Below are positions 1,371 to 21,008 of a DNA stretch of 21,008 bases, piece by piece. Position 1 is the first letter of the stretch; every line of letters starts with the position of its first letter. The DNA is taken from IMG/VR virus record IMGVR_UViG_2671180458_000004. One strand, given 5' to 3'. Source of the DNA: a virus. Its lineage: Duplodnaviria; Heunggongvirae; Uroviricota; Caudoviricetes. The translations under genes were made by a program, and so were the position numbers. The notes under the pieces are model-generated. The model was not told where the DNA came from and searched no databases. It saw nothing but the letters and a program-made list of their open reading frames with translations.

Positions 1371-1384
1371 ATTTGCCCTCCGCA

Positions 1385-1408
1385 GGGGCCGGGCCGTAAG
1401 CCCGGCTC
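1385..1408 (-). other. GC-rich stem-loop just 3' of the major capsid gene, without a U-tract
   Basis: GCCGGGC (1388-1394) / GCCCGGC (1400-1406) with 5-nt loop CGTAA, about 6 nt after the T stop; followed on the minus strand by the next gene's GGAGGG RBS. Confidence 0.4.
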
Positions 1409-1413
1409 ACCGT

Positions 1414-3494: not shown

Positions 3495-3669
3495 ACCGGC
3501 AGCATAAGCCGGGAATTTTCAGGGCGGGTTTTGCGGGATTTCAGGAAGTATTTTCAGGGAAAAATGCAAAGGCGCTTCACGCAGATTTTAAAGCCCGTTA
3601 AATACAGGTTAGAAAATCACGACACGCGCCTGAAGGGGGTAAGGTAATGCATTTGCATACCTTAAACAA
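3495..3669 (-). promoter_or_regulatory. Candidate late promoter region upstream of I, with three direct TTTCAGG repeats
   Basis: 175-bp ORF-free gap; TTTCAGG on the plus strand at 3517-3523, 3539-3545 and 3552-3558; short inverted repeat ATGCA-TT-TGCAT at 3647-3658; position corresponds to Mu late promoter P_I. Confidence 0.4.
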
Positions 3670-4143: not shown

Positions 4144-4170
4144 ATTGCCTCCGCATAAAGGATGAATATA

Positions 4171-4265
4171 AAATAAACAGGCGGTCAGTGTACGCTTAAC
4201 TGGTAAAGTCGGTGCCTGCCTCCGGGTGGATCATGTATGCGGGTTCGACCCCCGCCACTGACCGT
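4171..4265. other. Structured element in the F-G gap: long closing stem plus an inner hairpin with a tRNA T-arm-like loop; terminator-like on the minus strand
   Basis: Plus strand: GTCAGTG (4184-4190) pairs perfectly with CACTGAC (4256-4262); inner hairpin GCGGG-TTCGACC-CCCGC (4239-4255). Minus strand: the structure is followed by CTGTTTATTTTATATT. Confidence 0.35.
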
Positions 4266-7178: not shown

Positions 7179-8833
7179 CCCCGATCAAATTCATGATATG
7201 CCTCATCGTCATCACGATAACCGCCCTCCATTGCCCGCGACCGTTCCGGCAGCGCCTGACAGGCTGATTCATCCAGGATGAAGCCCTCCATGTATGACGC
7301 CCGGTTTGCCATACAGAGCGCCACGGCAAAATCGCCATGGCGGCGGGCGTTCACAGCCGTTGCGTTCTGGTCCTTCGTGCGCCCCTTGTCGATTTGCGGG
7401 ATACCGTTCACCACCTTCACATGGCGCAAATCATCAAGCGTGGTCTGATGGCGGGCGATGAGGATATTCTGATCCTCAAACTCGGCCTTCAGTTTTGGCA
7501 TCCACTCGCCGTACCACTTCGGCGATAACATCACGCAGTCGATGATGTCCGGGCCAAAGGCCAGCAGCGCGGCTTCGGCCAGATAGCCGCCGTTACCGGT
7601 GGCGTCGAACGCCGCACCGACCAGCGCCGGAACGCGGGTCAGGATGTACATCATCACCTGCTCCTGCTGGGCATACGGCAGGTTGCGCAGCTCCACGCGA
7701 AACACCTCGCGTTTTGCCAGGGATTCAGTGATTTCCAGCAGCACAAAGCAGGAGAGGTCACCGGTGCGGGCAAAGTCTTCCCCGAAGCTGAAGCGGGAAC
7801 GGGAATTTAACGCCTCTAAAAGCGGTTTTAAATGTTCTTCACACCAGGTTAAAACCTCCGATTCACGCAGCCATGCGGCACGGCTGATGAAGTCGTCCGG
7901 GGCTTCAAACGTCAGAATCGGGATGTCGCGGATCATCGCCATTTCAATAAGTGCGTGAGGAATATAGGCACCGCCGGACTTTTTCGGGATACAGCCGTAT
8001 TCCTCGTCGGCATCCTCACGGGTCGGGGCGTTTTTGTAGAGATCATCACGCCACTTCTGCTCGCTTTCCGGTGACCATTCGCGGCCGGTGACATAACAGA
8101 TACGACGGTACAGCCCGTCCGCAATGGCATCATCCAGGGTAATGCGGTGGACGCTGTAATCCTTGCGCCCCTCGCGGGCTTCCTGAATGTACTGATTAAA
8201 CAGATTATCGACGCCGTTATGCGTGGAGATAATACGCACGCGCGCGCCCCACATGGTAAGCGCCATTGCCGCCTTGAGAAGTTCATCCAGTGACTCGTGG
8301 AACGCGGCTTCATCAATCACCACATCCCCCTGAAGGCCGCGCAGGTTTGACGGACGGGAAGACAGTGCCTGAATTTTGAATCCACTGTTCGGAAAGCGGA
8401 TCATGTAGGTCAGAATTTCTTCTTTTTTATCCCGATCCCAGAAGGTCTGCTCATACACATCAGCATCTGCCAGCTGGTTAAAGGCACGGGAGAACAGGGC
8501 GCAGGCAGAAATATATTCCAGCGCCATCTCCTGCTTTGACCCCACATAAAACACATTGCGGCCACCGCGCCGCTTCGGTTTTGCAGCGGTAATGACGTTA
8601 CGCCCGGCTTCCGCCCAGGTAAGCCCGGTACGGCGGGATTTTTCCGCGATGCAGACCTCGCTTTCATCCTCAAACCAGCGGGCCTGATAATCCAGAAACA
8701 CCGGCATATCACCGGGCAAATCAAGGCTGTCCGGCACATCCACGCCCAGCAGGGCTTTTTCACCGGCCAGATCAATTTTGCGGGTGGAGACGGTATTCGT
8801 CAGTAAGGGTGAGAGTTCTTCGGCGTTATTCAT
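7169..8833 (-). CDS. Terminase large subunit (Mu gp28-like)
   Basis: 554 aa; ATPase N-terminal half and nuclease-like C-terminal half recognised by recall of Mu-type terminases; directly upstream of portal. Confidence 0.9.
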   Translation of the reverse strand: MNNAEELSPLLTNTVSTRKIDLAGEKALLGVDVPDSLDLPGDMPVFLDYQARWFEDESEVCIAEKSRRTGLTWAEAGRNVITAAKPKRRGGRNVFYVGSKQEMALEYISACALFSRAFNQLADADVYEQTFWDRDKKEEILTYMIRFPNSGFKIQALSSRPSNLRGLQGDVVIDEAAFHESLDELLKAAMALTMWGARVRIISTHNGVDNLFNQYIQEAREGRKDYSVHRITLDDAIADGLYRRICYVTGREWSPESEQKWRDDLYKNAPTREDADEEYGCIPKKSGGAYIPHALIEMAMIRDIPILTFEAPDDFISRAAWLRESEVLTWCEEHLKPLLEALNSRSRFSFGEDFARTGDLSCFVLLEITESLAKREVFRVELRNLPYAQQEQVMMYILTRVPALVGAAFDATGNGGYLAEAALLAFGPDIIDCVMLSPKWYGEWMPKLKAEFEDQNILIARHQTTLDDLRHVKVVNGIPQIDKGRTKDQNATAVNARRHGDFAVALCMANRASYMEGFILDESACQALPERSRAMEGGYRDDDEAYHEFDRGCW

Positions 8834-9414
8834 CAGGCTTTACCCAACAGAATCCCCTTAATACGGGACTCAAGCTGTTCACTCATCCCGTCCACGCCGC
8901 GCAGCTCGTCGGTGACCGCGTTTGCCATCTCTTCAGCAAATGCGGCCCGGATTTCTTTTTCACGCTTAATGCTGCGCTCGGCGGCACTTTCCGCACGCTG
9001 TGCTGACAGGAGGATGTCTTTGATGAGGCGCATATCCACGTCGCTGTCGCTGTTCAGAGATTCGGTCGCGGCACGCAGGCGGCGGTACATCAGGGCGCGG
9101 GACATTTCCAGAATCAGCGCTGTGGTTTCACCGGTTGGCTTGTCCCCCAGTTCGGCCATCATGGCTTTTGTCTGCTCGCGTAAATCACGCAGGTTACGGG
9201 CAATCAGCTCATTACGGGAGGCTTCCCGGCTGATGGCCGCCGGTGAAAGCTGCTGCTCTTCCGGCAGGCCCGCCTCACGGATCAGACGGTTGATTTCCTC
9301 GCGGATCTGGACCTGCGTCAGACGTTTTTCACGCAGCATTTCCAGCAGCGGCTTACGGATGCTGTCGGGGAGCAAATCCACCTTGCGTACACGACCACGC
9401 GTCGGCTTGTCCAT
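8833..9414 (-). CDS. Terminase small subunit (Mu gp27-like, DUF3486-type)
   Basis: 193 aa, charged and helical; AAGGGGGT RBS; its stop overlaps the large-terminase start (ATGA). Confidence 0.75.
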   Translation of the reverse strand: MDKPTRGRVRKVDLLPDSIRKPLLEMLREKRLTQVQIREEINRLIREAGLPEEQQLSPAAISREASRNELIARNLRDLREQTKAMMAELGDKPTGETTALILEMSRALMYRRLRAATESLNSDSDVDMRLIKDILLSAQRAESAAERSIKREKEIRAAFAEEMANAVTDELRGVDGMSEQLESRIKGILLGKA

Positions 9415-9416
9415 CG

Positions 9417-9707
9417 TTACCCCCTTGCGCGTGGTTTCTTCACACCCGGAACGCAGGCCCGGCCTTCCGCCACATCCTGCCCCCGGCCGGTCAGCTCTGC
9501 GATGAAATAACCGTTAATCAGAACGCGTTTGCGCACCAGTCCCTGCTCGGCAAGCCAGGCAATGTGGGTGTGAACGGTGTCGCGGGACACGCGGTGGCCG
9601 TAATCATCCAGACAGTCCTGGAGCACGGATTCACCCAGTTCACCGTTGTAATCTGCCAGCGACCGCAGAATGACCAGACGCTGATCTTCAGTAATGAAAT
9701 CACTCAT
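9417..9707 (-). CDS. Mu gp26-like small protein (96 aa), possible winged-helix fold
   Basis: Position between the gp25-like gene and terminase; ATGA coupling at its start; assignment positional. Confidence 0.6.
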   Translation of the reverse strand: MSDFITEDQRLVILRSLADYNGELGESVLQDCLDDYGHRVSRDTVHTHIAWLAEQGLVRKRVLINGYFIAELTGRGQDVAEGRACVPGVKKPRARG

Positions 9708-10012
9708 TGCGTTTTTTTCCTTACAGCCTGCTCCAGCAGCAGTTCGTTCTGATAGGAGACAGAGCGGAGCGTGGCGTTCGTGGTTTTCAGTTCACCCCGC
9801 AGGGTCACGATTTCCACATTCAGACGGTTGACCTCGGCTTCTGTCGGCAGTGACGACAGGCGGGTTTCCACCTTCTCAACGCGGTCGGAGAGTTTTTCAA
9901 AGGCCTCGCGGGGGACAAACGTTTTGCGCATCAGCGCCATGAATATCCCGCCAGCGGTTGCCGTCGCCGAAAGGATCGGCACAACATAATCTTTAACGAT
10001 GCTGACCCACAT
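9704..10012 (-). CDS. Mu gp25-like membrane-tethered protein (DUF2730-like), candidate releasin
   Basis: 102 aa; N-terminal hydrophobic helix then a coiled-coil-like cytoplasmic part; sits where Mu gp25 lies; 20-nt overlap with the upstream gene. Confidence 0.6.
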   Translation of the reverse strand: MWVSIVKDYVVPILSATATAGGIFMALMRKTFVPREAFEKLSDRVEKVETRLSSLPTEAEVNRLNVEIVTLRGELKTTNATLRSVSYQNELLLEQAVRKKTQ

Positions 10013-10220
10013 GACGGGCCTCCATGATGTTCTGGCAGTTCACACAACGGATGGCATCCGGCACCGCAACAAGACGTGCGGCGGGGATCTCTCCGCCACA
10101 GTCTGCGCAGACACGTCTGCCCGGAGCATCCATTGCCCGGCGCTTACGTGTCAGCCGGTTACAAAGGGCGCGTTCTGATCCCCGCTCCATCACAGCCTGA
10201 GCACGATCTGAATCATCCAT
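9993..10220 (-). CDS. TraR/DksA-family C4 zinc-finger protein (Mu gp24 position)
   Basis: Four Cys as CxxC-x17-CxxC (CADCGGEIPAARLVAVPDAIRCVNC); start moved to the ATG at 10220 (AGGAAA RBS), giving about 75 aa. Confidence 0.8.
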   Translation of the reverse strand: MDDSDRAQAVMERGSERALCNRLTRKRRAMDAPGRRVCADCGGEIPAARLVAVPDAIRCVNCQNIMEARHVGQHR

Positions 10221-10230
10221 ACCTTTTTCC

Positions 10231-10602
10231 TTACTTCGTCTTTCCTGCCGGAACAGCAGGCGTTCCGGCCATATCAGTAAATTCATGTTGTCGCCGCGCC
10301 TCCAGACGACGAATACTGGCCTTGTCCACGTTGCAGTTCTTGATCACCGCCAGCAGTTGCAGGTTGTAAGTGACCGATGCCCCAAACGTGAACGGCTCCG
10401 GCGCAGGAGGGACCAGGCAGTCAGCCAGCCATTCAGCGGGGATCGGCACCGGCTTCACAGGCACGTATTTCACAGACGGCCCGGCGCACCCGGTCAGCCA
10501 CATCATCAGGAACAGGGACAGAGGCCGCAGGCACTGCTGCCAGCGACCGGCGGACAACGCTCTGCTGCTCCTCGCTGTGCTGAATGTTCTGTTGTTTTTC
10601 AT
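10231..10602 (-). CDS. o-spanin (Rz1-like outer-membrane lipoprotein), overlapping the i-spanin gene in another frame
   Basis: Lipobox L-T-G-C followed by a Pro-rich mature region with C-terminal cysteines; starts inside the i-spanin gene and runs past its stop. The ATG at 10602 (GAGG upstream) gives an unusually long pre-lipobox region; an in-frame TTG near 10557 is an alternative. Confidence 0.6.
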   Translation of the reverse strand: MKNNRTFSTARSSRALSAGRWQQCLRPLSLFLMMWLTGCAGPSVKYVPVKPVPIPAEWLADCLVPPAPEPFTFGASVTYNLQLLAVIKNCNVDKASIRRLEARRQHEFTDMAGTPAVPAGKTK

Positions 10603-10783
10603 TCGTGGCCGCCTCACTGATTTGTGAAATGAGTTGCAGGGTGTGCTGCTGATTTGCCAGCACCTGACGCGCCTCATCCCGCTCACGCACAAGCACCTGA
10701 TTATTGTCTTCAAGGCGCTGTGTCTTCTGGTGCATTCCCCATATCGCGGCAACCAGTACAGCGATAATCCCCAGCGCCGCCAT
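10433..10783 (-). CDS. i-spanin (Rz-like inner-membrane spanin subunit)
   Basis: N-terminal TM segment then a long coiled-coil-like periplasmic region. The listed ORF start at 10954 would overlap lys by 59 nt, so the ATG at 10783 is taken; a GTG near 10822 is an alternative. Confidence 0.6.
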   Translation of the reverse strand: MAALGIIAVLVAAIWGMHQKTQRLEDNNQVLVRERDEARQVLANQQHTLQLISQISEAATNEKQQNIQHSEEQQSVVRRSLAAVPAASVPVPDDVADRVRRAVCEIRACEAGADPR

Positions 10784-10895
10784 GCACGCCCCGGCAATCA
10801 GGGCCGGTAAGGCATTATTCACCGCAGCCACAGGACACCCCGTAACAGCAGTACCGCACACAGCAGCGCTATCATGAGCGGTCGCCAGAAGCGGT

Positions 10896-11396
10896 TCAGA
10901 CTTTCGGCAAGTCGTAGCGACATAACCATTCATCCGCCGAACGGCGGGCCTCAAGGCCGGGGAGTTTCACCCCCTTTGAATAAATCCAGCGGATATACTG
11001 CTTACAGGACGCGGGCATCTGCCCGGCATTGATCAGGCGCAGAAGCGTGGAGTTGCGGAAGTTCGTTTCACCGGCCCAGAAGATCCACGAAGCCAGCGCC
11101 ACCGTCTGACCACGGGTAAGCGGCACCTGAACACGCCGATCAATGGCCGCAAAGGCCCATTTCATGTCCTTTTCCAGCAGTTCCAGGCATTCTTCATCCG
11201 TCAGGGTCATACCCGGTTTCACATCCGGGCCGGTATGGCCGTAACAGATGGTGGGTGTACCGGTGGGATCGATATACGTGGAGTTTTCTTTCCCTTCCCA
11301 GTAACCGGTGTAATGCGTGGCAATCGTGAACGTCCCGGCACCGGCCAGAACAAGGGCAATCAGCTTTTTACGCAGTGGTGCGGGGAGTTTTGGCAT
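10896..11396 (-). CDS. lys: Endolysin, T4-lysozyme-like (GH24) with N-terminal signal-anchor-release domain
   Basis: 166 aa; basic N-terminus MPKLPAPLRKK followed by a Gly/Ala-rich weakly hydrophobic stretch; catalytic spacing E-x8-D-x5-T in YWEGKENSTYIDPTGTPT. Confidence 0.9.
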   Translation of the reverse strand: MPKLPAPLRKKLIALVLAGAGTFTIATHYTGYWEGKENSTYIDPTGTPTICYGHTGPDVKPGMTLTDEECLELLEKDMKWAFAAIDRRVQVPLTRGQTVALASWIFWAGETNFRNSTLLRLINAGQMPASCKQYIRWIYSKGVKLPGLEARRSADEWLCRYDLPKV

Positions 11397-11467
11397 TGTT
11401 ACGCTGTCTCATGATGTTCTCTGAGTCAGCGTAACGGTGAAGGAAAGGCGGCAGGCTTTGCGGAATA
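11397..11467 (-). promoter_or_regulatory. Candidate activator-dependent late promoter / 5' leader of lys, with a 9-bp inverted repeat
   Basis: 71-bp gap between the mor stop and lys ATG; perfect inverted repeat GTTACGCTG (11398-11406) / CAGCGTAAC (11427-11435), 20-bp spacer, left arm abutting the lys start; position analogous to Mu Plys. Confidence 0.4.
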
Positions 11468-11893
11468 TCAGAAAAGTGGCGGTTGCGTTCTTGCCAGATG
11501 CAGACGGCGCTGTTCGCGTATGACGGTATAAATCTGGGTTTCTGACATCCGGTAATGGCGGCGAAGGGATTCAATTTTCTCGCCCCGGTCCCAGCGCGAA
11601 AATATCTCATTGTTTCGCAGCTCGGCAAAGAGAGATTCCCCGACCGGCAGGTAATAACCCCGTCCGCCCATATAGGCTGCCTGAGCCGCAGCCACCTTGC
11701 GTGCCAGTTTACCGGCCAGTACCGGCTCAATCCCCTGACGCTGAAGTTCTGCGCCAGTGACTTCAACCAGTTCTGACAGGGTCCGCGGCCAGTTCTTTTT
11801 GAGAACATCATCAGGGATGTCATCAAGGCGGTCGATAAGGGCGTGCAGTTGCTCACTGTCACCACCAAACATGCTCATCTGAGTTTCTGCCAT
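11468..11893 (-). CDS. mor: Mor/C-family transcriptional activator (middle/late gene activator)
   Basis: 141 aa, the size of Mu Mor (129 aa) and C (140 aa); GGAGG about 6 nt upstream; located between gemA and lys. Confidence 0.85.
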   Translation of the reverse strand: MAETQMSMFGGDSEQLHALIDRLDDIPDDVLKKNWPRTLSELVEVTGAELQRQGIEPVLAGKLARKVAAAQAAYMGGRGYYLPVGESLFAELRNNEIFSRWDRGEKIESLRRHYRMSETQIYTVIREQRRLHLARTQPPLF

Positions 11894-11925
11894 ATCAGCC
11901 TCCGGTTCTCGCGTTCCCGGTAAGT

Positions 11926-11958
11926 TTAAAATAAAAATCCCGCGTTGTGGCGGGATTT
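11926..11958 (-). terminator. Rho-independent terminator/attenuator between gemA and mor
   Basis: Perfect 9-bp stem AAATCCCGC/GCGGGATTT (11935-11943 with 11950-11958) around a 6-nt loop; on the minus strand it is followed by TTTTATTTT; begins 4 nt after the gemA stop. Confidence 0.7.
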
Positions 11959-11962
11959 GGGG

Positions 11963-12472
11963 TTAACGGGGAAGTGATTTTTCATACTGCCTGCAAACGG
12001 CGTCATACCCCATCAGCGTGCGTTCGGGCATTCCCATCGCGGCCAGCATTTTGCGGCGGTGCCATCGCTTGAGACGCTCCAGCACATCTGAGGCCAGGGC
12101 GGGGTGTTGCTCCAGCCACTGCCAGTTTGCCACACCTTCGCCGCCGTTTTGCGCGGCCGTCTGCGATTTCACCCAGCGGTTAAGGGCGGTTTCCGCACCA
12201 TCAGAGATAAAGCCCTGCCGGTGCATCACCTTCCAGATGGCGCGAATTTTAGCGGTCACCGTACCCGGTTTTAAGGCCCGGTTAACCGGGTTCTGACGCA
12301 CTTTAAAACCGCGTTTTTTGAAAACATCCAGCACGCGGGACAACTCATCCGGTGACATATCCCGGCAGCTGGTTTTGCCGGTGGCTGCCAGCAGCACGAA
12401 TGTATAAGTCTCATCATCCAGGGCAAGCTCGCGCTTTGCCACATGAATGGCGGATATCAGTTTTCCTCTCAT
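11963..12472 (-). CDS. gemA: GemA-family protein (Mu gp16-like, DUF1018)
   Basis: 169 aa; N-terminal MRGKLISAIHVAKRELALDDETY pattern recalled as typical of Mu GemA homologs; sits just upstream of mor as in Mu. Confidence 0.8.
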   Translation of the reverse strand: MRGKLISAIHVAKRELALDDETYTFVLLAATGKTSCRDMSPDELSRVLDVFKKRGFKVRQNPVNRALKPGTVTAKIRAIWKVMHRQGFISDGAETALNRWVKSQTAAQNGGEGVANWQWLEQHPALASDVLERLKRWHRRKMLAAMGMPERTLMGYDAVCRQYEKSLPR

Positions 12473-12765
12473 ACCGTATTTACCTTTTTACGGACATGGA
12501 AAGCCTTTTCTGCCTCATCCCACCGGGCATGGTGTGTTGGCGGAATAATCATTATGTGCCAGCCATCTCTGGTTGTTATCCGGCAGAAAAATTCACCGCT
12601 ATATAACACAATGGCCTGCTGAATGAGCGCATCAGCCGCCCGTTCAACCGGATATCTTTTATCAAAAAAGCAGATGATTTTTCGACATAACCACCGGGTA
12701 ATAACAAATGCACCGAAAAAGGATGTGATATATAAGCACCAGAACAACAGAGAACTATTGTCCAT
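12469..12765 (-). CDS. Hypothetical protein with N-terminal transmembrane helix (98 aa)
   Basis: AAGGAGAAAG RBS; hydrophobic N-terminus LLFWCLYITSFFGAFVITRWL; ATGA coupling into gemA. Confidence 0.6.
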   Translation of the reverse strand: MDNSSLLFWCLYITSFFGAFVITRWLCRKIICFFDKRYPVERAADALIQQAIVLYSGEFFCRITTRDGWHIMIIPPTHHARWDEAEKAFHVRKKVNTV

Positions 12766-12952
12766 TATCTTTCTCCTTATTCACTCTTCTTCGGCATTCG
12801 GCACAGTCATCAGGGCTTTCAAATGTATCCGGCTCGCGATTATGAGCCAGATATAACCACCGTCCACATATACTGATATTTTCGCCTGTTTTAAAAAAAT
12901 GATGCTTCCTGGCCATTAGTGGCCGCGCCCATCCAGCGGGTAGACTATTCAT
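12755..12952 (-). CDS. Hypothetical small protein (65 aa) with Cys/His residues
   Basis: GGAGGATAAAGCAA RBS; overlaps both neighbouring genes by a few nt; C-x(6)-H-x(12)-C-x2-C pattern could bind a metal (speculative). Confidence 0.55.
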   Translation of the reverse strand: MNSLPAGWARPLMARKHHFFKTGENISICGRWLYLAHNREPDTFESPDDCAECRRRVNKEKDNGQ

Positions 12953-13280
12953 TTGCTTTATCCTCCATGCTGGACAGAATCATATGTATTAATGTCGGGC
13001 GTGGAGATATACGCATTTCATTAAGCGTCTGAAGGGCAGCAACAGCTGCCTGTTTATCGGTGCCTTTGGCTATCTCTGCAAGAGAATGCACAATCCATAA
13101 CGGACTTAACGCCACGGCTGAATCCAGAATCATGTCATCCATAATAATTTCTGGCATATCCCGCTTGTCACATTCTTTATCTATAAAAGAAACGATTTTT
13201 TCTGCATCTTCCGGTTTCATGCCTCCGGCGATGAGAATTTTACGATATTCATAAGGCGATCTTAATTCAATACTCATCAT
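12945..13280 (-). CDS. Hypothetical acidic protein (111 aa)
   Basis: GGTGA-type RBS immediately upstream of ATGATG; lies in the low-GC stretch. Confidence 0.6.
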   Translation of the reverse strand: MMSIELRSPYEYRKILIAGGMKPEDAEKIVSFIDKECDKRDMPEIIMDDMILDSAVALSPLWIVHSLAEIAKGTDKQAAVAALQTLNEMRISPRPTLIHMILSSMEDKANE

Positions 13281-13292
13281 TCACCTGCCTGT

Positions 13293-13661
13293 TTAATCAG
13301 TTTCCAGTGCTTTGCTACGGGCAACAGCCTCACACTCAAAAAATACCGACTCCGGCACACGCTCCTTTAATTCACGAACAAGAAAATCATTAACGAGCTC
13401 ATGACGTCTTATATTTCTTTCCTTTTCCTCCTGGCGCAATACAGCAAGGCGGTATTCAACAGTCCGGCGTTGTTTCTGAAAGACAGCCAGTGCTTTTCTG
13501 GCAGAGTTACGCCATGTATCATCGCCACAGGGTTCGTATTCAAGCTGAAATTTAATCTCTTCAATGGTTTCTTTTATTTTTGCCAGCAAGCTAAGACAGT
13601 CGCTGATTGTCTTCAGTTTTTCATTATCAATATAACTTCTCACGCATTCACCTCCCGTCAT
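13293..13661 (-). CDS. Hypothetical protein, probably coiled-coil (about 122 aa)
   Basis: ORF 13293..13685 begins at a GTG; the ATG at 13661 forms an ATGA overlap with the upstream stop and is preferred. Heptad-like charged pattern in the C-terminal half. Confidence 0.55.
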   Translation of the reverse strand: MTGGECVRSYIDNEKLKTISDCLSLLAKIKETIEEIKFQLEYEPCGDDTWRNSARKALAVFQKQRRTVEYRLAVLRQEEKERNIRRHELVNDFLVRELKERVPESVFFECEAVARSKALETD

Positions 13662-13969
13662 TCCGGTAAAGCTGAAATATGACACCAGTGCGTCACCTGT
13701 CCGTCCTCATCTTCAAGGCAGGCTCCGGTTTCTTCATCAACAAAAAAGCCTTCATACCCCATATGGCCGATGCGCAGTTCCTGCCTGTGACCATACTGAA
13801 CAATCAGCACGACAGCCTCCATATCAGGCGGGAAAGCATCATTCAGTGAATGCCAGGGATAACCGCGCAAATCCCCGAAATAAACACCGGTCAGCGTTCC
13901 GCCACAGACCGGCATTCCGGCGGCACACACAAGAGGTTCATCTGATTCAACAAATAAGGTGGTTATCAT
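13658..13969 (-). CDS. Hypothetical strongly acidic protein (103 aa)
   Basis: ATGA-coupled start; many more acidic than basic residues by manual count; C-terminal EDEDGQVTHWCHISALPE. Confidence 0.6.
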   Translation of the reverse strand: MITTLFVESDEPLVCAAGMPVCGGTLTGVYFGDLRGYPWHSLNDAFPPDMEAVVLIVQYGHRQELRIGHMGYEGFFVDEETGACLEDEDGQVTHWCHISALPE

Positions 13970-14193
13970 GATGCCATTTGCTCCTGTATTTTCTGGCGTA
14001 AGTTTTCAATTTCTGCCGCCATATAAAAACCAATTTTGCTCCAGACATCAGCATCATCACCATGTTCTTCCAGCTCCATTACCGCCATTAAACACGCATC
14101 CTGCCAGTCACTGCTGTTATCAGTTACCGCCACTGAAAATGATGTACTGTCATGTCTGTTAATTATGACGACTGGCTTTTCAATTTTTCTCAT
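13966..14193 (-). CDS. Hypothetical small acidic protein (75 aa)
   Basis: GGGAGG about 6 nt upstream; ATGA coupling to the next gene; rich in Asp/Glu. Confidence 0.6.
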   Translation of the reverse strand: MRKIEKPVVIINRHDSTSFSVAVTDNSSDWQDACLMAVMELEEHGDDADVWSKIGFYMAAEIENLRQKIQEQMAS

Positions 14194-14375
14194 TTATGCC
14201 TCCCGGAAATACGAATGTATATACCGATGAGAAAATCCATAATAAACAGGAAGAGCGACATCCTGATAAAGAACCAAATGTCAGGCATCATGGACAGGTT
14301 TCCTGTAATCGCAAATATAAAACCAATCCCCAACACCGGAACGATAATTGCGAAAAATATAAGTCGTTTAATCAT
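14190..14375 (-). CDS. Small predicted membrane protein (61 aa, two hydrophobic helices)
   Basis: Sequence is almost entirely two hydrophobic stretches separated by a short polar loop; ATGA overlap with the upstream stop. Confidence 0.6.
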   Translation of the reverse strand: MIKRLIFFAIIVPVLGIGFIFAITGNLSMMPDIWFFIRMSLFLFIMDFLIGIYIRISGRHK

Positions 14376-14923
14376 GGCATTAACTCCCGTAATACAACAT
14401 CCTCGGCAGTCCGGCGATGGTGATAAATAAAATTCACCGTACTCTCGGATAATTCAAATTTCTCGCCTATTTCCCGGAAGGTAAGACGTCGTGGTGATTC
14501 AGCATCCCGTAATTCACGAATAAGATGAACATCATCGTCAGGTATACGGGTGAAGGGCAGCAATTCTCCGTATTTTTTCATGCTTACGCCAATATATCGC
14601 GCCCGATTGTGGACAGAATCCCGGTCTCGCCCCAGATATTCTCCTATTTGCTTACCGGTCATCGTTCTGGCATTTTTTCGGATAAATTTATCTTCATCAT
14701 GTTTAAATCTTGGACGTTTGCATTTGAGCAACTCCGGGTAAGTACCGCGTAATAAAACAATCCGGTTATGTACACCCCAGAAACTTCTTTTTACCCTGAC
14801 AGCAATATCCTTAACCGGGGTGGATGGATAAAGCGCAATCAGCAGTGCATCTTCTTCAGGTGTCCACGCACGGACATGAGCGGGTGCACGGCCTTTTCGC
14901 CCCATGGGTTGTAAAATCATCAT
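14372..14923 (-). CDS. Putative DNA-binding protein with several HTH-like segments (183 aa)
   Basis: AGGGGGTGA RBS; Myb/SANT-like WTPEEDALLIALY near the N-terminus, a central TGKQIGEYLGRDRDSVHNRARYIGV and a C-terminal LTFREIGEKFELSESTVNFIY segment. Confidence 0.65.
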   Translation of the reverse strand: MMILQPMGRKGRAPAHVRAWTPEEDALLIALYPSTPVKDIAVRVKRSFWGVHNRIVLLRGTYPELLKCKRPRFKHDEDKFIRKNARTMTGKQIGEYLGRDRDSVHNRARYIGVSMKKYGELLPFTRIPDDDVHLIRELRDAESPRRLTFREIGEKFELSESTVNFIYHHRRTAEDVVLRELMP

Positions 14924-14926
14924 ACA

Positions 14927-15442
14927 TCACCCCCTGACTCGCTTTTCAGCAGCATAAAACTCATCAGACAGAATTTCGGTCATTTTCCGTTTTGCGGAAT
15001 CATCTTCGCACTGAAGGTAAATAACATCGTCAACGCAGAACCACTTCACGGGACCATGCAATATTGCTGAAAAGTCAATGCCCAGCCAGAACAACAGGGC
15101 ATCGGTTCTGGCATACGTGACGGGCGAATATTCACGCCACAGACTGTTAAGTTCGTCAGAGGCAACGCGCAGGGCTTTGGGAATACGTGATGTGCGCGGT
15201 GTGCAGCTCCAGCCATTCGACGCAGTCGGTTTTCGCCATAAGTCGCGATGAAAAGGATATTTGTCATCCATAAAGCGCAGCCCTTTAAAACAAAAGCCAC
15301 TGATACCGGATACAAATACCGACCGGCACGCAACATTCAGCACGGCCTCAAGGCGTTTTGCCTCATCCTTAACTTTCTGGCAGTCCTGCTGATATTTTTT
15401 CCACGCGGCCAGCGCGGAAGGGTTTGATGTTTTAAAGAACAT
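14927..15442 (-). CDS. Hypothetical protein (171 aa)
   Basis: Translationally coupled to the upstream gene (TAATG); no recognisable motif. Confidence 0.65.
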   Translation of the reverse strand: MFFKTSNPSALAAWKKYQQDCQKVKDEAKRLEAVLNVACRSVFVSGISGFCFKGLRFMDDKYPFHRDLWRKPTASNGWSCTPRTSRIPKALRVASDELNSLWREYSPVTYARTDALLFWLGIDFSAILHGPVKWFCVDDVIYLQCEDDSAKRKMTEILSDEFYAAEKRVRG

Positions 15443-15975
15443 TACGCCACCTCCGCAGATATCCCGGCAGGCGCGGCCGTCCGGTCAACAATCAGGTAAC
15501 GCAGAACACGCGCGGTGATATTCCAGCCGCTTAAACCGCAGATGATGACACCCAGGCGTATGTCGATATACGCCATCACAAACTGGGGCACGCCTTCTTT
15601 CATGGCCTGCTCATCAACTTCAGCCACCACATAAACGGTTTCGCAGGTCAGTACGCCCTGAGCAAATTCCCACGCCATCGACGGAATATCATGCCCCTCA
15701 ATCCACGGCAGGGACTTTCTGAAGCTGCACCACTGAACATCATCAGCCGCACATTCCTGGCTGCATTTGCGACGAACCGGCTGCACCGGGCGGGGACGCG
15801 GAATATCATAAAAACCGTTACATTCCGTCAGCACCCCGGCATCAACCGCATCACGCAGAAAATAAACCATCGAGGATGGCGGCATATTCATTTTTTCAGC
15901 CAGAACACCGCAGGTCAGACGTCCGTAAATACGCAGCCAGTTTTTAACCCCTTCAAGCACTTTTGCATCAATCAT
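15442..15975 (-). CDS. Hypothetical protein (177 aa), possible N-terminal winged-helix-like segment
   Basis: GGAGG about 8 nt upstream; stop and next start overlap as TAATG; the helix-turn-helix impression is by eye only. Confidence 0.65.
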   Translation of the reverse strand: MIDAKVLEGVKNWLRIYGRLTCGVLAEKMNMPPSSMVYFLRDAVDAGVLTECNGFYDIPRPRPVQPVRRKCSQECAADDVQWCSFRKSLPWIEGHDIPSMAWEFAQGVLTCETVYVVAEVDEQAMKEGVPQFVMAYIDIRLGVIICGLSGWNITARVLRYLIVDRTAAPAGISAEVA

Positions 15976-15978
15976 GAA

Positions 15979-16521
15979 TTATTCCTCCGTCAGCGCCACA
16001 TATTCAGAATGTTTAATTTCCTGGCATTCTTCAGGAATACACCCGTTTATTTCCCTGCCATAAGCGCCTACTTTAAACACCACGCACAGGGCATCACGGG
16101 AGAGTGACGGGGTCCACCAGGAGTCCGTGTTAAACATGGAGGGGATTCTCATTACCCCCAGCTTTTCACAGAGCCAGACAAGGAAATCAGGACGCTTTCT
16201 TAACTCGCGTTCAGCGGCTTCAACCATTGCGGCAATCGCCGGACCTTCAGGGCATGACTCATCAGGTCTGGCAATAAAGCACGGTCCGCCCCCGATAAAA
16301 GCCACATCATCGCGCTTACGCCAGCCCGCAGGCAGAGAACCAGAAAAATAAAACTCACTGATTACGTCCATGGCGAACGGCTTTAAGCGCAATCCGGCAG
16401 CGCCTGTATTTTTCAGTAATGCCCGAAGAATACTGTTGCGTAGCGGTAAAACAGTCTGTTGATATTTGGTGAAATATTTATTTGTCTGTACACGGTCTAA
16501 TTTGAAATAAAAATATGCCAT
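15979..16521 (-). CDS. Hypothetical protein (180 aa), accessory block
   Basis: AAGGAACAGGA RBS; first gene after the 97-bp gap downstream of gam; no family recognised. Confidence 0.65.
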   Translation of the reverse strand: MAYFYFKLDRVQTNKYFTKYQQTVLPLRNSILRALLKNTGAAGLRLKPFAMDVISEFYFSGSLPAGWRKRDDVAFIGGGPCFIARPDESCPEGPAIAAMVEAAERELRKRPDFLVWLCEKLGVMRIPSMFNTDSWWTPSLSRDALCVVFKVGAYGREINGCIPEECQEIKHSEYVALTEE

Positions 16522-16618
16522 ATTTCCTGTTCCTTATTTTCAGTTTACAGGCGCAGGCAGTCCCCTGACGCGAGCGCCATAATTAAAACGAAGTGATATT
16601 TAAAGATTTAATGCGGTG

Positions 16619-17149
16619 TTATTTATTCAGTCCGGCGTCCTGTTCAAAAGGCTCGACATGAAAACTTTCAGCACCTTTATTCACCTTAATACCAGCAACC
16701 CCTTTCACCGCATCCGGCTCCGCCAGGACAGCTTGCTTATTCACTTCCTCTTTCGTGCGGATGAAGCGCTCAAGCCCCATACGACGCAGCATTTCAATCA
16801 CACCTTCCACATCACGACTGACGCTGCATGATGGATTTCCCAGCCGCCATGACACCGTTCCGGTGGTCAGATTGGCAGTTTTGGTTTCGCCGCCGTTCGT
16901 CAGCTCATTGCGGTTGGTTTTACACCAGTCATGAATCCCCTTAAAAAGCACTTTGATTTCTTTTTTAAGGTTTTCAATCTGCGGCGTATAACGGGCGGTG
17001 ATTTCTGCCACTTCATCATTCATTGCCGTTTCCAGGCGCAGCGCCTCTCGCTGAATATCGCCCAGGGTGCGGATATCGCGGCTGACCTCTTCACGGGTCT
17101 GCGGTGCCGCCTCTGCTGCGGCCTTTAATTTTGTAACGCGTTTTGCCAT
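16619..17149 (-). CDS. gam: Host-nuclease inhibitor Gam (Mu Gam family, Ku-like DNA end-binding protein)
   Basis: 176 aa, the size of Mu Gam; sequence recalled as Gam family; AAGGAAAAA RBS upstream of the ATG. Confidence 0.85.
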   Translation of the reverse strand: MAKRVTKLKAAAEAAPQTREEVSRDIRTLGDIQREALRLETAMNDEVAEITARYTPQIENLKKEIKVLFKGIHDWCKTNRNELTNGGETKTANLTTGTVSWRLGNPSCSVSRDVEGVIEMLRRMGLERFIRTKEEVNKQAVLAEPDAVKGVAGIKVNKGAESFHVEPFEQDAGLNK

Positions 17150-17160
17150 TTTGTTTTTCC

Positions 17161-17454
17161 TTATTGCAATGTATCTGGTCCGTTCTGAACAGAACGGCGT
17201 TCAACGGAGCTGCTTACCCCCATGGCCTGCATGGAACCCTGTAGTTCATCTGTCAGAAACTGAATGATTGTGGGGCTGTGATATTTAAGAATTTGTGCAT
17301 AAACATCACAGGGTCCTGCCGGTCTGTTCTCTGTATCACGTTCGATTTTTACCGTGGCAGTAACCCCCTCCGTGATTTCCTTACTATCATTACCGGCTGG
17401 CTTTACTTCATGCATTACGTGGTCAAATTCAAAAATAACGCGTACTTTGCTCAT
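17161..17454 (-). CDS. Hypothetical early protein (about 97 aa), paralog of the adjacent gene
   Basis: Start moved to the second ATG (17454): it aligns with the paralog's N-terminus, has AGGGG about 8 nt upstream and avoids a 23-nt overlap. Confidence 0.6.
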   Translation of the reverse strand: MSKVRVIFEFDHVMHEVKPAGNDSKEITEGVTATVKIERDTENRPAGPCDVYAQILKYHSPTIIQFLTDELQGSMQAMGVSSSVERRSVQNGPDTLQ

Positions 17455-17458
17455 GGAA

Positions 17459-17731
17459 TTACCCCTGTTGATTAAATTCATTACCGTTAATAACCCCGGA
17501 ACTCATGTCCATATCTTTCATGAGCGCACTGGCTTTCATTGCCACAAGTTCAGCAAAGTCTCTGCTTTCCGCGAGCATAACCACCCCAAAAATCATGGCG
17601 GGTCCATCACCTTTCTGCTTTATCCCGGTTGAACGTATGTCCAGACTTACCCCCATGCGCACTGTTCCATCAGCGTTTTTATGGATAACGTGCTCCTTGT
17701 ATTCGAAAATAATGCGTACGACTTTACTCAT
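17459..17731 (-). CDS. Hypothetical early protein (90 aa), paralog of the adjacent gene
   Basis: N-terminus MSKVVRIIFEYKEHVIHK resembles MSKVRVIFEFDHVMHEVK of the 17161..17454 product; C-terminal MKDMDMSSGV versus MQAMGVSSSV. Confidence 0.6.
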   Translation of the reverse strand: MSKVVRIIFEYKEHVIHKNADGTVRMGVSLDIRSTGIKQKGDGPAMIFGVVMLAESRDFAELVAMKASALMKDMDMSSGVINGNEFNQQG

Positions 17732-18009
17732 CCTCTGGTCCTCGTTCTGTTTGGATAACTGACCCGGCGTCTGACCTCACGGCAGAACCGAATCATGGCA
17801 TTAAAGGCTTCTTCCTCCGTCACCGCTTCCGGTATCCCCGGAACCAGTAACTGCTCCTGTTCATCACGTCCATGACGCGCCATAACCTCAATCACATGCC
17901 GTACTGTGGCAGGCTTTCCGGCAACTATCGGCAATGCACCTTCCGGCAGGACGTAACCCAGTTCAATGAGACCGCTCGACCACGCCCACGCAATTAGATT
18001 TCGTTTCAC
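17728..18009 (-). CDS. Hypothetical early protein (93 aa), GTG start
   Basis: GTG at 18009 preceded by GGGAGGAG; stop overlaps the next start (ATGA). Confidence 0.55.
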   Translation of the reverse strand: MKRNLIAWAWSSGLIELGYVLPEGALPIVAGKPATVRHVIEVMARHGRDEQEQLLVPGIPEAVTEEEAFNAMIRFCREVRRRVSYPNRTRTRG

Positions 18010-18010
18010 C

Positions 18011-18265
18011 TCACTCCTCCCAGTAAACCGTGCAGCCGCTGATGCGGGTAGCCTTCACACGGCGGCGCAGGCCGTTGGTCTGTATGGTGATTTCAATTTC
18101 ACCGGTTCCCTTAACTTCGCTTACCGGCGGCGTGGTTTTCAGGGCATAACGTTGTGGGTAGCGTTTGCTGCGTTCCAGTACCGCACCGGCAAGTTCAGTC
18201 AGACGGCGTGCACTGTTCAGGGAGTCGAATAAATTCATTTTTTTACCGCAGGATTGCATATTCAT
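18011..18265 (-). CDS. Hypothetical early protein (about 84 aa)
   Basis: ORF 18011..18277; the internal ATG at 18265 is preferred because GAGGTG lies about 5 nt upstream; the stop is 1 nt before the next gene's start. Confidence 0.5.
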   Translation of the reverse strand: MNMQSCGKKMNLFDSLNSARRLTELAGAVLERSKRYPQRYALKTTPPVSEVKGTGEIEITIQTNGLRRRVKATRISGCTVYWEE

Positions 18266-18277
18266 ATAACACCTCAT

Positions 18278-18505
18278 TTAGCTGACTTGTTTCGCACCAA
18301 CAGAACGGCATATTCCGCTGTAAACTTCTGTCGCACCTTCGCGATCAAGTCCGGCAGATATCACCATTCGTGTGCGGTCATTAAATTCAAAAAGTAAATC
18401 GCCACATTCTTTATTTTCGGCCAGTGAAATCACCTTCACGTTATCGAAATTAACCAGGTAAAAGCGTCCGTAAATATCAGGAATATTAAATACCGCCATA
18501 ATCAC
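18278..18505 (-). CDS. Small early protein at the kil position of Mu (75 aa); function not established
   Basis: GTG at 18505 overlaps the B stop (GTGA); an in-frame ATG at 18499 with AGGTG upstream is an alternative start. Kil-like only by position and size. Confidence 0.5.
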   Translation of the reverse strand: MIMAVFNIPDIYGRFYLVNFDNVKVISLAENKECGDLLFEFNDRTRMVISAGLDREGATEVYSGICRSVGAKQVS

Positions 18506-19434
18506 ACCTGTGAGAGTAATTCAGGGTTGGTATAAACCTCTTTAAAGGCCGCATTAATATGTTTTTCTGTCAGCGCCGCGCCTTCACCGCTGGCGGTGAG
18601 CCACGCCTGGTTAAGCGTATGTGTCAGAACGCGTAACGCTCCCGGCTTTTCAGCGATAGCCTGCATGACGGCCAGCTCGGCCTCACCACTGATCCCCCAC
18701 GCCCTGGCAATGGCCAGCACATCCGCCTTTTTGGCCTTGCGAAGTTGTTTTGTACGGGCAAGACGGCTGAACAGGCGCGATAAATCATCAAAGGCGCGGC
18801 GTCCACCTTTAAACAATCCGCGCGGGTTACCAATAAGCACCATCCCGATCCCCGTGGCGTCCTGAATTGCCCGGAGTTGCTCCAGACCGTCAATACCAAG
18901 ATGATCCGCCTCATCCACAATCACCAGTCCACGCGTTCCCATCAGGCGACGGCGGATGGCGCGGGATAATGCCCCTTTGTTCGCGCGGGTGTAATCAATC
19001 CCCAGCGCATCGGCCAGCTCCAGCAGACACTCCGTGACGCTGGAGTGCGCGGGTGACAGGGTGATCATCCAGGTGTTTGGTTGCTCCTGGCAGTAATTAC
19101 GGGCAGTGGCCGTTTTACCCACACCCGGTACGCCCACAATAACGTTAATACAGCCCATCAGACGAACCGCCTGAAACAGTGTGCGCAGCTCCTGGACTGT
19201 CTGCGTTTCCACAAACTGCGGCGGTTCCGGCAGTGCGCTTTGTTTATTCCAGTTCTCATACCAGGAACGCAGGGAAGCAGCCACAGCAGCGTTATCGCCT
19301 TTATATTTTCCCTTACGGAAAGCCGATAATGTGCCGTCGGAAATTCCCGCCTCTCTGGCGATGGCATACTGCGTCAGTACGCCGCCATCAATAAGTTCAT
19401 CAATGGTCTTGATTACATCGTTAATATCAGTCAT
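18502..19434 (-). CDS. B: Mu B-type transposition target-DNA activator, AAA+ ATPase
   Basis: 310 aa; Walker A GVPGVGKT and Walker B-like LVIVDEADHL visible; N-terminal HTH-like segment; directly downstream of A; GAGG about 9 nt upstream of ATG. Confidence 0.92.
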   Translation of the reverse strand: MTDINDVIKTIDELIDGGVLTQYAIAREAGISDGTLSAFRKGKYKGDNAAVAASLRSWYENWNKQSALPEPPQFVETQTVQELRTLFQAVRLMGCINVIVGVPGVGKTATARNYCQEQPNTWMITLSPAHSSVTECLLELADALGIDYTRANKGALSRAIRRRLMGTRGLVIVDEADHLGIDGLEQLRAIQDATGIGMVLIGNPRGLFKGGRRAFDDLSRLFSRLARTKQLRKAKKADVLAIARAWGISGEAELAVMQAIAEKPGALRVLTHTLNQAWLTASGEGAALTEKHINAAFKEVYTNPELLSQV

Positions 19435-19469
19435 ATTATTAACCTCTCATTTGATACCTTGTTTAATCA

Positions 19470-19505
19470 AATAACCTGAGTCGCCGCTCGGGTTATTTTT
19501 TTATT
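19470..19505 (+). terminator. Terminator-like hairpin in the A-B gap, oriented for the plus strand (antisense to the genes)
   Basis: About 11-bp stem (19470-19480 with 19487-19497, one G-U) around loop TCGCCG, followed on the plus strand by TTTTTTTATTT; on the minus strand no U-tract follows. Confidence 0.4.
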
Positions 19506-21008
19506 TCAGGCCAGCGGGTCATTTTCTTTTAATTTCGCTTCCAGCAACTGCAATCCCCGCTGGAAATTACGCTCGTATTCTTCATCAGGCTCATCATCAA
19601 CGGCAGGTTGCTGAACGGCCACCGTATTACCTACCGGGCGATAGATGTTTTCCAGCCAGGGCTCCTGCGGCTTGTGCTCCAGCACGTTGACAACCTCATC
19701 CTCGGCATCACGGATTTTTTCCTCTGCGCGTTTACGCATGCCTTTAAGGCGTTGCTGCTGTTTGTAGTATTCCGCGCTAACCGGGAAGGCTTCGCGTTTA
19801 TTACCGTCCCATACCGCCTCGCAAATCACGCTGCCATCCAGGCGACGTACGGTAATTCGTTCGGCATCATGAATGTCATAGCTGATAAGCACCTTGCGGC
19901 CATGCTCATCACGCAGCTCGGGCGCGTAGTAAATATTATTCAGCCAGCGTATTTCACAGCGTCTTACAGGGCGTTCCACCATCGGCCGGAACATGTCCCG
20001 CAATTCCACATCGGACAGCCATTCAATTTCCGTGTCCTCTTCCGCCAGGCATTTTTTTCTGAACTCCGCCGGGCTGTAATGTTTACCGTTCGGCTTCATC
20101 GGTAATTCATCGTGCGGTCGGTTGTTGTACCACTCAACACCATCACGAATGGCATCAATCAGTTCAGACCAGGACGGTAAATCACGCATCGCTGACTGTT
20201 GCCGGGCGTTCAGCCGTTTGCCCTGTTGCAGGGCGGTAAATGCCGAGCGTAAATCGCGGTTGGTTTTGCGTAACGTCTCGCGATCTGCACCTTTCCCGAA
20301 ATAGGTGCGGTATTTACGGGCTATGCGCATCGGTAATGTGCGGTTAAGCCGTTCGATAATGCCTCGTCCCTGCGGATTACCGGCAATCCCGGTCGGGTGA
20401 TTAATCCCCAGTCGCGGCAGTATCCCCACAACCTCCTTATCCAGGATGTCGGCGGTTTCCCCGGAGCCGTTATCCGAGTAATACAGAAACGGTTTGCCGT
20501 GATGGCGAATGCCGTGCTGTATGGCACCGGCTACGGCGAAAACATTTTCAGCCAGGTCAAGGCTCCAGCCCACCACAAAGCGCGTGCCACCGTCGATAAC
20601 AAAGGTCACTTCCGGTGCAAATGGCCGACCGTGAACCGGGTGTGCGCATTTCAGCTTCATGCCGTGACCGTCACCAATCCAGACATAATTCACCGGCATT
20701 TTTGACCAGTCGCGGCGCGTGAATCCCTCAAGCTGGCGGTATTCACTGCCGGTCACCCGGCCTTTTTGTTTCACCACTTCCGGCAGTTTCTTCATTGCGC
20801 GGCGAATGGTGTCATAAGACGGCATGATATCGAGCATATAAGGCTCATCAGCGTGCCGGTGCTGCCATTCAGCGACAAAATCCTCGTAAGCCTCGGTCAT
20901 TGGTCGGCCGTTTGACTGGCGATACTGCGCCAGAAATTCGGGCAGCCAGTTAATATCTTCGGCTTTTATTTCCTGGCGCTTACCCGGTGCCAGTAAAAGC
21001 AGGCGTTC
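19506..21008 (-). CDS. A: Mu-type DDE transposase A, C-terminal portion (N-terminus lies beyond the window edge)
   Basis: 464-aa ORF 19506..20900; the same frame stays open with no stop from 20901 to 21008, so the listed Met is internal. Position immediately upstream of B. Family assignment from recalled similarity to MuA. Confidence 0.9.
   Translation of the reverse strand, partial: ERLLLLAPGKRQEIKAEDINWLPEFLAQYRQSNGRPMTEAYEDFVAEWQHRHADEPYMLDIMPSYDTIRRAMKKLPEVVKQKGRVTGSEYRQLEGFTRRDWSKMPVNYVWIGDGHGMKLKCAHPVHGRPFAPEVTFVIDGGTRFVVGWSLDLAENVFAVAGAIQHGIRHHGKPFLYYSDNGSGETADILDKEVVGILPRLGINHPTGIAGNPQGRGIIERLNRTLPMRIARKYRTYFGKGADRETLRKTNRDLRSAFTALQQGKRLNARQQSAMRDLPSWSELIDAIRDGVEWYNNRPHDELPMKPNGKHYSPAEFRKKCLAEEDTEIEWLSDVELRDMFRPMVERPVRRCEIRWLNNIYYAPELRDEHGRKVLISYDIHDAERITVRRLDGSVICEAVWDGNKREAFPVSAEYYKQQQRLKGMRKRAEEKIRDAEDEVVNVLEHKPQEPWLENIYRPVGNTVAVQQPAVDDEPDEEYERNFQRGLQLLEAKLKENDPLA

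Follow-up and report, generated by a model that had tools for sequence, protein, structure and literature searches.

The window that we analyzed is the whole 21,008-nucleotide stretch of DNA in IMG/VR virus record IMGVR_UViG_2671180458_000004, which represents a Mu-like transposable prophage of Escherichia coli. Our subject is a gene on the minus strand of this prophage, listed among its open reading frames (ORFs) at window positions 14372-14923, which encodes a protein of 183 amino acids (aa) with three helix-turn-helix (HTH) modules in its predicted structure. We refer to the gene and its product as the three-HTH gene and the three-HTH protein. A preliminary description of the same DNA had picked out an ORF of exactly this extent and length, and it had suggested that the product contains HTH-like segments and that it could regulate the surrounding accessory block or interfere with host nucleic-acid functions.

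Gene and module structure of the three-HTH protein

That the ORF is a genuine gene is shown by its conservation, by a low ratio of nonsynonymous to synonymous substitutions (dN/dS) and by its recurrence in E. coli genomes. Of the 5426 complete E. coli genomes searched, 232 (~4%) have the gene, lineages of Shiga toxin-producing E. coli among them, and homologues at 31-98% identity occur in tens of cluster representatives, with full-length ones down to ~31-40%. Comparison of the gene with eight alleles gave dN/dS values of 0.18-0.30 (Nei-Gojobori), which indicates purifying selection. The opposite reading, on the plus strand of 14372-14923, was rejected, as it is interrupted by stops throughout.

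The genes around the three-HTH ORF are packed tightly, as is typical of phage operons. The ORF opens with ATG ATG at a distance of 3 nucleotides (nt) from the stop of the upstream gene, and at its other end its stop codon overlaps the start of a 61-aa ORF in the arrangement ATGA. A Shine-Dalgarno-like AGGGGG lies within the end of the upstream gene, a gp12 homologue, and suggests translation inside a tight operon.

For the structure of the protein we relied on two alignments of its family, A1 with 28 sequences and A2 with 26 diverse members, and on an AlphaFold2 model built with A1, for which local confidence is given as the predicted local distance difference test (pLDDT). The features of the gene and of the modules that it encodes, with the isoelectric point (pI) of each module, are as follows.

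14372..14923, minus strand: complete coding sequence of the three-HTH protein, with a TGA stop at 14372-14374; supported by the ORF list, the sequence, homologues and dN/dS of 0.18-0.30
14930-14935, minus strand: Shine-Dalgarno-like AGGGGG, 6 nt upstream of the ATG and inside the end of the gp12-like gene; read from the sequence
14873..14923, minus strand: N-terminal arm, residues 1-17 (MxLxPMGxxGxxPAH); basic, conserved in the family, predicted disordered, pLDDT 46-64
14726..14872, minus strand: R1, residues 18-66, a Myb/GcrA-like tri-helical repeat; helices 22-31, 37-43 and 48-59; pI 9.5
14576..14725, minus strand: R2, residues 67-116, a Myb/GcrA-like repeat; helices 75-84, 90-97 and 101-110; pI 10.5, the most basic module
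14540..14575, minus strand: linker, residues 117-128, with an invariant K117-x-G119 that leads into R3; alignments A1, A2 and A3
14375..14539, minus strand: R3, a distinct HTH (helices 129-140, 149-156 and 160-169) followed by a C-terminal helix at 173-181; pI 5.5, acidic
14544..14633, minus strand: mosaic hot spot, residues ~97-127 (R2 helix 3 and linker), from sliding-window identity

When the family alignment was split in thirds, R1 and R2 proved to be homologous repeats (hhalign probability 98.3%, E 2e-14), and R3 (~residues 125-183) was only faintly similar to either. The AlphaFold2 model (mean pLDDT 84.8) consists of three predicted three-helix bundles plus the C-terminal helix and contains no strands; its predicted template modeling score (pTM) of 0.51 leaves the orientation of the domains to one another undefined. 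The best fold matches of the model were the DNA-binding domain of GcrA and Myb/SANT domains, and every close structural match was a DNA-binding domain. A Foldseek search against the PDB also recovered multi-HTH arrays (Cbp2, sigma factors, Mos1/Tc3 and Pax5).

Profile comparisons point in the same direction as the model. The family profile matched c-Myb R2R3 (1h88_C) at E 2.6e-6, colinearly through both repeats, and Myb models in Pfam gave sub-threshold matches to residues 19-32, of which residues 20-32 read WTPEEDALLIALY. At residues 131-167, within R3, Pfam gave HTH_AsnC-type, HTH_11, Sigma70_r4 and MarR_2 matches, all sub-threshold. A profile of R3 alone found only generic HTHs in the PDB and Pfam, with designed proteins at the top, and R3 weakly resembles region 4 of sigma-70 in 14 of 24 family members, again below threshold. 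A tblastn search with R3 alone returned no annotated match and did not confirm a suspected likeness of R3 with its K-x-G-D/E leader to a motif frequent in HNH endonucleases.

Two of the modules are Myb/GcrA-like repeats, and the third is a sigma-region-4-like HTH. The three HTH-like stretches of the preliminary description hold up in these data: the c-Myb profile match and the fold matches agree with its Myb/SANT-like N-terminal segment, its central stretch is R2, the homologue of R1, and its C-terminal stretch is R3, which is seen both in the AlphaFold2 model and in the sub-threshold Pfam matches. It had named structure prediction among its checks, and the predicted structure contains HTH folds, with no match to a non-DNA-binding family.

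A remote relationship to the T5 protein D5

The closest characterized relative that we found is D5 of bacteriophage T5 (T5.118, YP_006946), which RefSeq describes as 'DNA-binding protein; required for DNA replication and late transcription; also involved in shutoff'. The three-HTH protein matched phrog_323, 'transcriptional regulator, D5-like', at E 1.9e-58, with residues 2-182 aligned to positions 80-256 of the 319-position profile, and is placed by PHROG in the category 'transcription regulation'. D5 itself matches phrog_323 at E 1.2e-71. Direct comparison by hhalign gave a probability of 96.6% for A1 against D5 (E 6.7e-10, 144 columns) and of 97.0% for A2 against D5 (E 7.9e-11, 163 columns).

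The similarity is colinear across all three modules, with residues 18-171 of the three-HTH protein corresponding to residues 72-232 of D5, and sub-threshold Myb, HTH_23 and Sigma70_r4 signals follow one another in the same order in both proteins. Both genes also lie among early or replication genes. The two proteins differ in that residues 1-70 of D5, which carry HTH_33 and Tc3_2-like signals, have no counterpart in the three-HTH protein, so that the full D5 architecture is not present there, and in that D5 lacks the invariant K-x-G and the DxDV motif found before R3 in the three-HTH family. They differ in setting too: D5 is required in a virulent phage, whereas the three-HTH gene lies in a dispensable region of a temperate transposable phage. 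On these comparisons, the three-HTH protein is a truncated-architecture member of the D5-like group.

What is reported of D5 bears on the function of such a protein. The HTH of D5 is reported to bind the multicopy single-stranded DNA (msDNA) of the type IX retron-Kva2 and to trigger this retron, and D5 alone to be mildly toxic (2026 preprint, PMC13405049). The classic reference on D5 is McCorquodale et al. 1979, from which we take those properties of D5 that its title states, as cited in PMC12630848. An interference with host nucleic-acid functions, which the preliminary description had raised as one possibility, would by analogy be compatible with the part of D5 in the shutoff of gene expression and with its mild toxicity.

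Comparison with other known families

Since the individual modules resemble those of several families, we compared the three-HTH protein with each of these. R1 and R2 share with Myb/SANT proteins (c-Myb R2R3; PF00249 and PF13921) an arrangement of two tandem, homologous three-helix repeats of ~50 residues that open with W-T-x-E-E-D. The Pfam scores stay under the gathering thresholds (15.7 versus 24.4 bits for PF00249 and 16.1 versus 22.9 bits for PF13921) and cover residues 19-32 only. The three-HTH protein further differs from Myb in keeping only the first of the three Myb tryptophans, in having a third, non-Myb HTH and in being prokaryotic and phage-borne. Its repeats have the GcrA-type DNA-binding fold (PDB 5yiu, from a Caulobacter cell-cycle regulator), and relatives with multiple copies of R1/R2 reach the GcrA model in Pfam (P0078). 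The three-HTH protein itself gave no match to that model (PF07750) at E values up to 10, and it shows no evidence of a sigma-70-interacting C-terminal domain of the GcrA type.

A relationship to HNH homing endonucleases was seen through gp103 of mycobacteriophage Thibault, in which residues 5-96 align with R1-R2 (34% identity, E 8e-13) and an HNH_3 domain follows at 123-162. The gp103 gene lies between two ORFs annotated as 'DNA methylase' (L015:1000-2801, gp102-gp105) and looks like a homing endonuclease insertion that splits a methylase gene. The three-HTH protein differs from gp103 in having its third HTH where gp103 has the nuclease; Pfam gave no match to an HNH catalytic domain in it, and the model is all-alpha.

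Four further assignments were rejected. The RefSeq name of the protein, 'AsnC family protein', would place it in the Lrp/AsnC family, which has an N-terminal winged HTH; the HTH_AsnC-type match lies in the C-terminal third (residues 131-163; 22.4 versus 27 bits), no RAM/AsnC_trans_reg domain was matched in Pfam at E values up to 10, and the AlphaFold2 model contains no beta strands. Judged by sequence and model, this name is a mis-annotation that should be replaced. The protein is not a sigma factor either: region 2 is absent, region 4 is sub-threshold (19.3 versus 24.1 bits, residues 145-167), and the TIGR02937 score is 14 bits against a cutoff of 42.9. Membership among the CasPRs, which are DNA-binding anti-CRISPRs described recently, was dismissed as neither a CapR zinc-finger-like domain nor an AP2 domain was found in Pfam or PADLOC. 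A defense or anti-defense family was set aside as well, with nothing from PADLOC for the neighboring genes and only a marginal 'HEase' match for the three-HTH protein.

Finally, the archaeal CRISPR-repeat-binding protein Cbp2 (PDB 2lvs) was the top Foldseek match in the PDB (probability 0.93) and was matched by the family profile at E 2.6e-4. Cbp2, the bipartite domains of Tc3/Mos1 and the Pax paired domains resemble the three-HTH protein as HTHs strung like beads and joined by linkers. They differ from it in that the E values are weak, the whole chains superpose poorly (template modeling scores of 0.2-0.3) and the biology is unrelated.

Prophage setting and distribution of the family

The early, lysis and head genes listed below all lie on the minus strand of the window, in the order in which they are given, and the three-HTH gene is placed directly after the gp11 and gp12 homologues in the early operon.

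Truncated at the window end, minus strand: MuA-like transposase
18502-19434, minus strand: MuB
Among the early genes, minus strand: small early ORFs
16619-17149, minus strand: Gam
15442-15975, minus strand: gp11-like protein (Pfam Gp11_C)
14927-15442, minus strand: gp12-like protein
After the three-HTH gene and before GemA, minus strand: several small ORFs
11963-12472, minus strand: GemA
11468-11893, minus strand: Mor
Beyond Mor, minus strand: lysis and head genes

What had been called the accessory block is the semi-essential early region of the Mu-like prophage, between gam and gemA/mor. This block is almost devoid of noncoding DNA, as its genes abut or overlap, and it contains 6 promoter-like sites versus 11.8 +/- 3.6 in shuffled sequence, which is fewer than expected. 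Its GC content is low (0.43-0.45 at window 12500-15000 versus 0.55-0.59 in the structural genes at window 1-11000), which is consistent with horizontally acquired cargo. Otherwise near-identical prophages that keep the three-HTH gene differ, through insertions and deletions, in the genes that follow it. Inside Shiga toxin (Stx) phages, DNA almost identical to that of the window carries the annotation 'inserted bacteriophage Mu-like phage'. Scanned over its whole length with Rfam, the window gave no match to an RNA family.

Several further observations were made in this region. The 61-aa ORF that overlaps the three-HTH stop (14190-14375, minus strand) encodes a small product that is very hydrophobic by eye and is probably a two-pass membrane protein. 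Together with a 75-aa ORF (13966-14193, minus strand) it forms an insertion/deletion; in the related prophages L053 and L036 the end of the three-HTH gene joins directly to the equivalent of window position 13970. Neither ORF had a match in PHROG, Pfam or PADLOC. The gap between gemA and mor contains a strong terminator-like hairpin (11935-11958, minus strand) with a 9-bp stem, 5 GC pairs and a T-rich tail, which could be where the early transcript ends or a point of attenuation ahead of mor. Some Salmonella Mu-like relatives encode a DUF3164 protein in place of Gam (L006:4646-5284), and the same Salmonella locus has an inserted dATP/dGTP pyrophosphohydrolase-like gene (8040-8987) on the downstream side of the three-HTH gene. 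These swaps in Salmonella show that cargo is exchanged freely in the early region.

The family extends well beyond this prophage. An exhaustive profile search returned 14,180 proteins at E<=1e-3, many of them long proteins with 3-10 tandem repeats of the R1/R2 type (P0035, P0036, P0044 and P0078), some fused to other domains; in P0035, which scores above the Myb threshold of Pfam, a ResIII/Helicase_C helicase precedes nine repeats. Within IMG/VR, 65 loci encode the three-module protein, and tblastn with marker proteins assigned 45 of them to Mu-like and 20 to P2-like phages. In 42 of the 45 Mu-like loci gp11 is followed by the gp12 homologue, and a gap of 7-18 nt separates the latter from the start of the three-HTH gene. 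In the P2-like loci the replication gene A lies downstream without exception (20/20) and abuts the three-HTH gene in 8, and a Dam-like methylase lies 24-625 nt upstream in all 19 loci that are not truncated there. The three-HTH gene is always found in an early, replication-proximal operon of temperate phages, and its immediate neighbors differ by phage type; loci looked up one by one gave the same picture. We found no characterized Mu-like or P2-like homologue in the literature.

The order Dam-like methylase, 0-2 small ORFs, three-HTH gene and gene A was also observed in Salmonella and Citrobacter loci. GcrA, the best structural match of the repeat, reads methylated DNA and prefers it, and by analogy a link to methylation is conceivable. 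We did not adopt a link to Dam methylation, as the P2-like loci are related by descent and no methylase gene adjoins the three-HTH gene in the Mu-like loci.

Conservation, charge and recombination within the gene

The modules differ in charge and in conservation. With a pI of 9.99, the protein as a whole is basic, and this charge is carried by R1 (9.5) and R2 (10.5) versus an R3 of 5.5. Four residues are invariant in A2: W20, K117, G119 and D129. The best-conserved elements are helices 1 and 2 of R3 (DxDVxLIRxLRD and LTFxEIGEKF), with a mean entropy of ~1.1.

Nucleotide identity to related Mu-like prophages falls to 59-71% at the hot spot at 14544-14633, versus ~95% in the flanking gp11 and gp12 genes. 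Because identity drops locally in this way among prophages that are ~95% identical, we conclude that the three-HTH gene is a mosaic produced by intragenic recombination.

A proposed role and its alternatives

We favor a reading in which the three-HTH protein is a monomeric, multi-HTH DNA binder with an accessory role in the lytic cycle like that of D5, although our confidence in this reading as a whole only just tips in its favor; that the protein binds DNA is likely. A small, basic protein (pI 10) of three tri-helical HTH modules with short linkers would bind double-stranded DNA, having been made from the early lytic transcript along with the transposition-replication genes A and B, gam and the homologues of gp11 and gp12. 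We infer that the site would be extended and non-palindromic and that a monomer would bind it. The modules of c-Myb R2R3, and those of the bipartite Tc3 and paired domains, bind DNA by each placing a third helix, and R1 and R2 may likewise each insert the third helix into the major groove. The acidic, conserved R3 would provide either a third contact with DNA or a surface that docks onto a protein partner. By analogy with D5, the job of the protein may be to modulate transcription, replication or both in the early-to-late lytic phase. It would not be the main switch, because Mor is present separately.

A number of observations weigh against this reading. The relationship to D5 is remote, with an identity of 22-26% and a BLASTP E value of only 7e-4 (22%), and D5, at 255 aa, has an extra N-terminal HTH-like module of ~70 residues. 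Membership in phrog_323 is by itself no proof of shared function because that PHROG is heterogeneous: the HNH endonuclease gp103 of Thibault matches it too, at E 3.6e-32. Every single Pfam HTH or Myb match is under its curated threshold, R3 is acidic, and the SANT-type domains of eukaryotes often bind proteins instead of DNA. By tblastn, the three-HTH protein has no match in any phage record named Mu, and the gene lies in a dispensable, semi-essential region and is therefore not a core regulator. A search for repeated binding sites across window 11000-21008 gave only short matches of chance quality in 2-4 copies. Lastly, the third helix is the most variable part of each module (entropy 2.3-2.7), and among E. 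coli alleles dN/dS is 0.3-0.9 in the third helices versus 0.11-0.20 elsewhere, so that the putative recognition helices are changing at roughly four times the rate of the remaining protein. This variability fits a changing specificity or, equally, helices that are not the functional surface, and a conserved acidic R3 combined with fast third helices would fit either allele-specific recognition of DNA or protein docking by R3.

Other explanations have to be weighed against the same data. The preliminary description had chiefly proposed a regulator of the accessory block, and a local transcription factor for this block, or for another promoter of its own prophage, would be in keeping with the DNA-binding folds, with the PHROG category and with a location in the early operon from which it could feed back on early or middle promoters. 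This claim was not borne out: the block offers nearly no intergenic DNA, fewer promoter-like sites than shuffled sequence and no array of operator-like sites, its downstream content varies among close relatives that keep the gene, and the gene travels without the block, as at the 20 P2-like loci that lack the block genes. Established regulators (Ner-like, Mor and Ogr) are also present separately, and we think a local role of this kind improbable. It is likewise unlikely that the protein is a sequence-specific silencer directed at the host or a competitor, in which nuclease-free modules of the homing-endonuclease type would block a defense gene or another prophage in the manner of CasPRs. Those nuclease-free binders, which combine CapR with AP2, do provide a precedent, as they bind inside coding sequences and can thereby silence genes of the host (10.64898/2026.02.23.707548). 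A silencer would also suit the fusion of an R1-R2 module to the HNH nuclease in gp103, the weak homing-endonuclease matches (PADLOC HEase, phrog_1891, and HNH_repeat in the Shae_phiSM homologue) and the movement of the gene between Mu-like and P2-like phages independently of its neighbors, and the roughly four-fold diversification of the third helices together with mosaicism is what would be expected of a specificity determinant in an arms race. The three-HTH protein, however, has neither CapR nor AP2, and its gene belongs to the early lytic operon, where no separate promoter was detected for it, whereas the CasPR worked in the lysogenic state and silencing of transcription was not fast enough for protection in the lytic cycle (10.64898/2026.02.23.707548). 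No target sequence was identified, and neither the protein nor its neighbors matched a PADLOC or anti-defense family.

The position of the best-conserved elements (R3 helices 1 and 2, the K117-x-G119 linker and the N-terminal arm, with the third helices not among them) could instead point to an adaptor that binds proteins, in which the R3 surface and the arm would dock on RNA polymerase or sigma, a replication protein, gp12 or gpA and the HTH bundles would serve as scaffolds, as SANT domains do. The acidic pI of R3, its weak, below-threshold likeness to sigma-70 region 4 and the tight, probably translational coupling to gp12 in Mu-like and to gpA in P2-like phages agree with this, but R1 and R2 are strongly basic, the close structural matches are all DNA-binding domains, the relative D5 binds DNA, and the adjacent partner differs by phage type with no conserved neighbor; an adaptor is very doubtful. 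The gene is almost certainly not what is left of a free-standing homing endonuclease that has lost its nuclease domain and is decaying with no current function. Such an origin would account for the module in common with an HNH endonuclease and for the location in a variable, dispensable region, but purifying selection (dN/dS of 0.2-0.3 over eight allele comparisons) largely refutes it, the full three-module architecture is retained down to 31-40% identity in many lineages and two unrelated phage types, and no frameshifted or truncated nuclease remnant lies adjacent. We also considered a bolder and distinctly unlikely possibility, that the protein is a mobile, rapidly re-targetable specificity module whose recognition helices are swapped or diversified by recombination, which hops from Mu-like to P2-like phages or back and which would act on host or rival-phage DNA, either by silencing a defense locus or by reading Dam-methylated DNA at the start of replication, or which, conversely, would be sensed by type IX retrons.

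Significance

Proteins of this kind are already recognized, as databases annotate them as DNA-binding or SANT/Myb proteins, and the present analysis does not overturn current understanding; it supplies a useful correction of annotation and a modest lead. The placement of the protein with T5 D5 connects Myb/GcrA-like repeats, the DNA-binding arms of homing endonucleases and the early regulators of virulent phages, which tend to be considered apart, and it offers the first testable functional frame for the gene: binding of DNA, an influence on replication and on late transcription, and perhaps toxicity and the triggering of type IX retrons. Its fast third helices and intragenic mosaic would make the three-HTH protein a compact natural system for changes of specificity in multi-HTH proteins. 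If the protein were indeed a mobile specificity module, D5-like HTH arrays would be common coin in the conflict between phages and their hosts instead of ordinary phage regulators.

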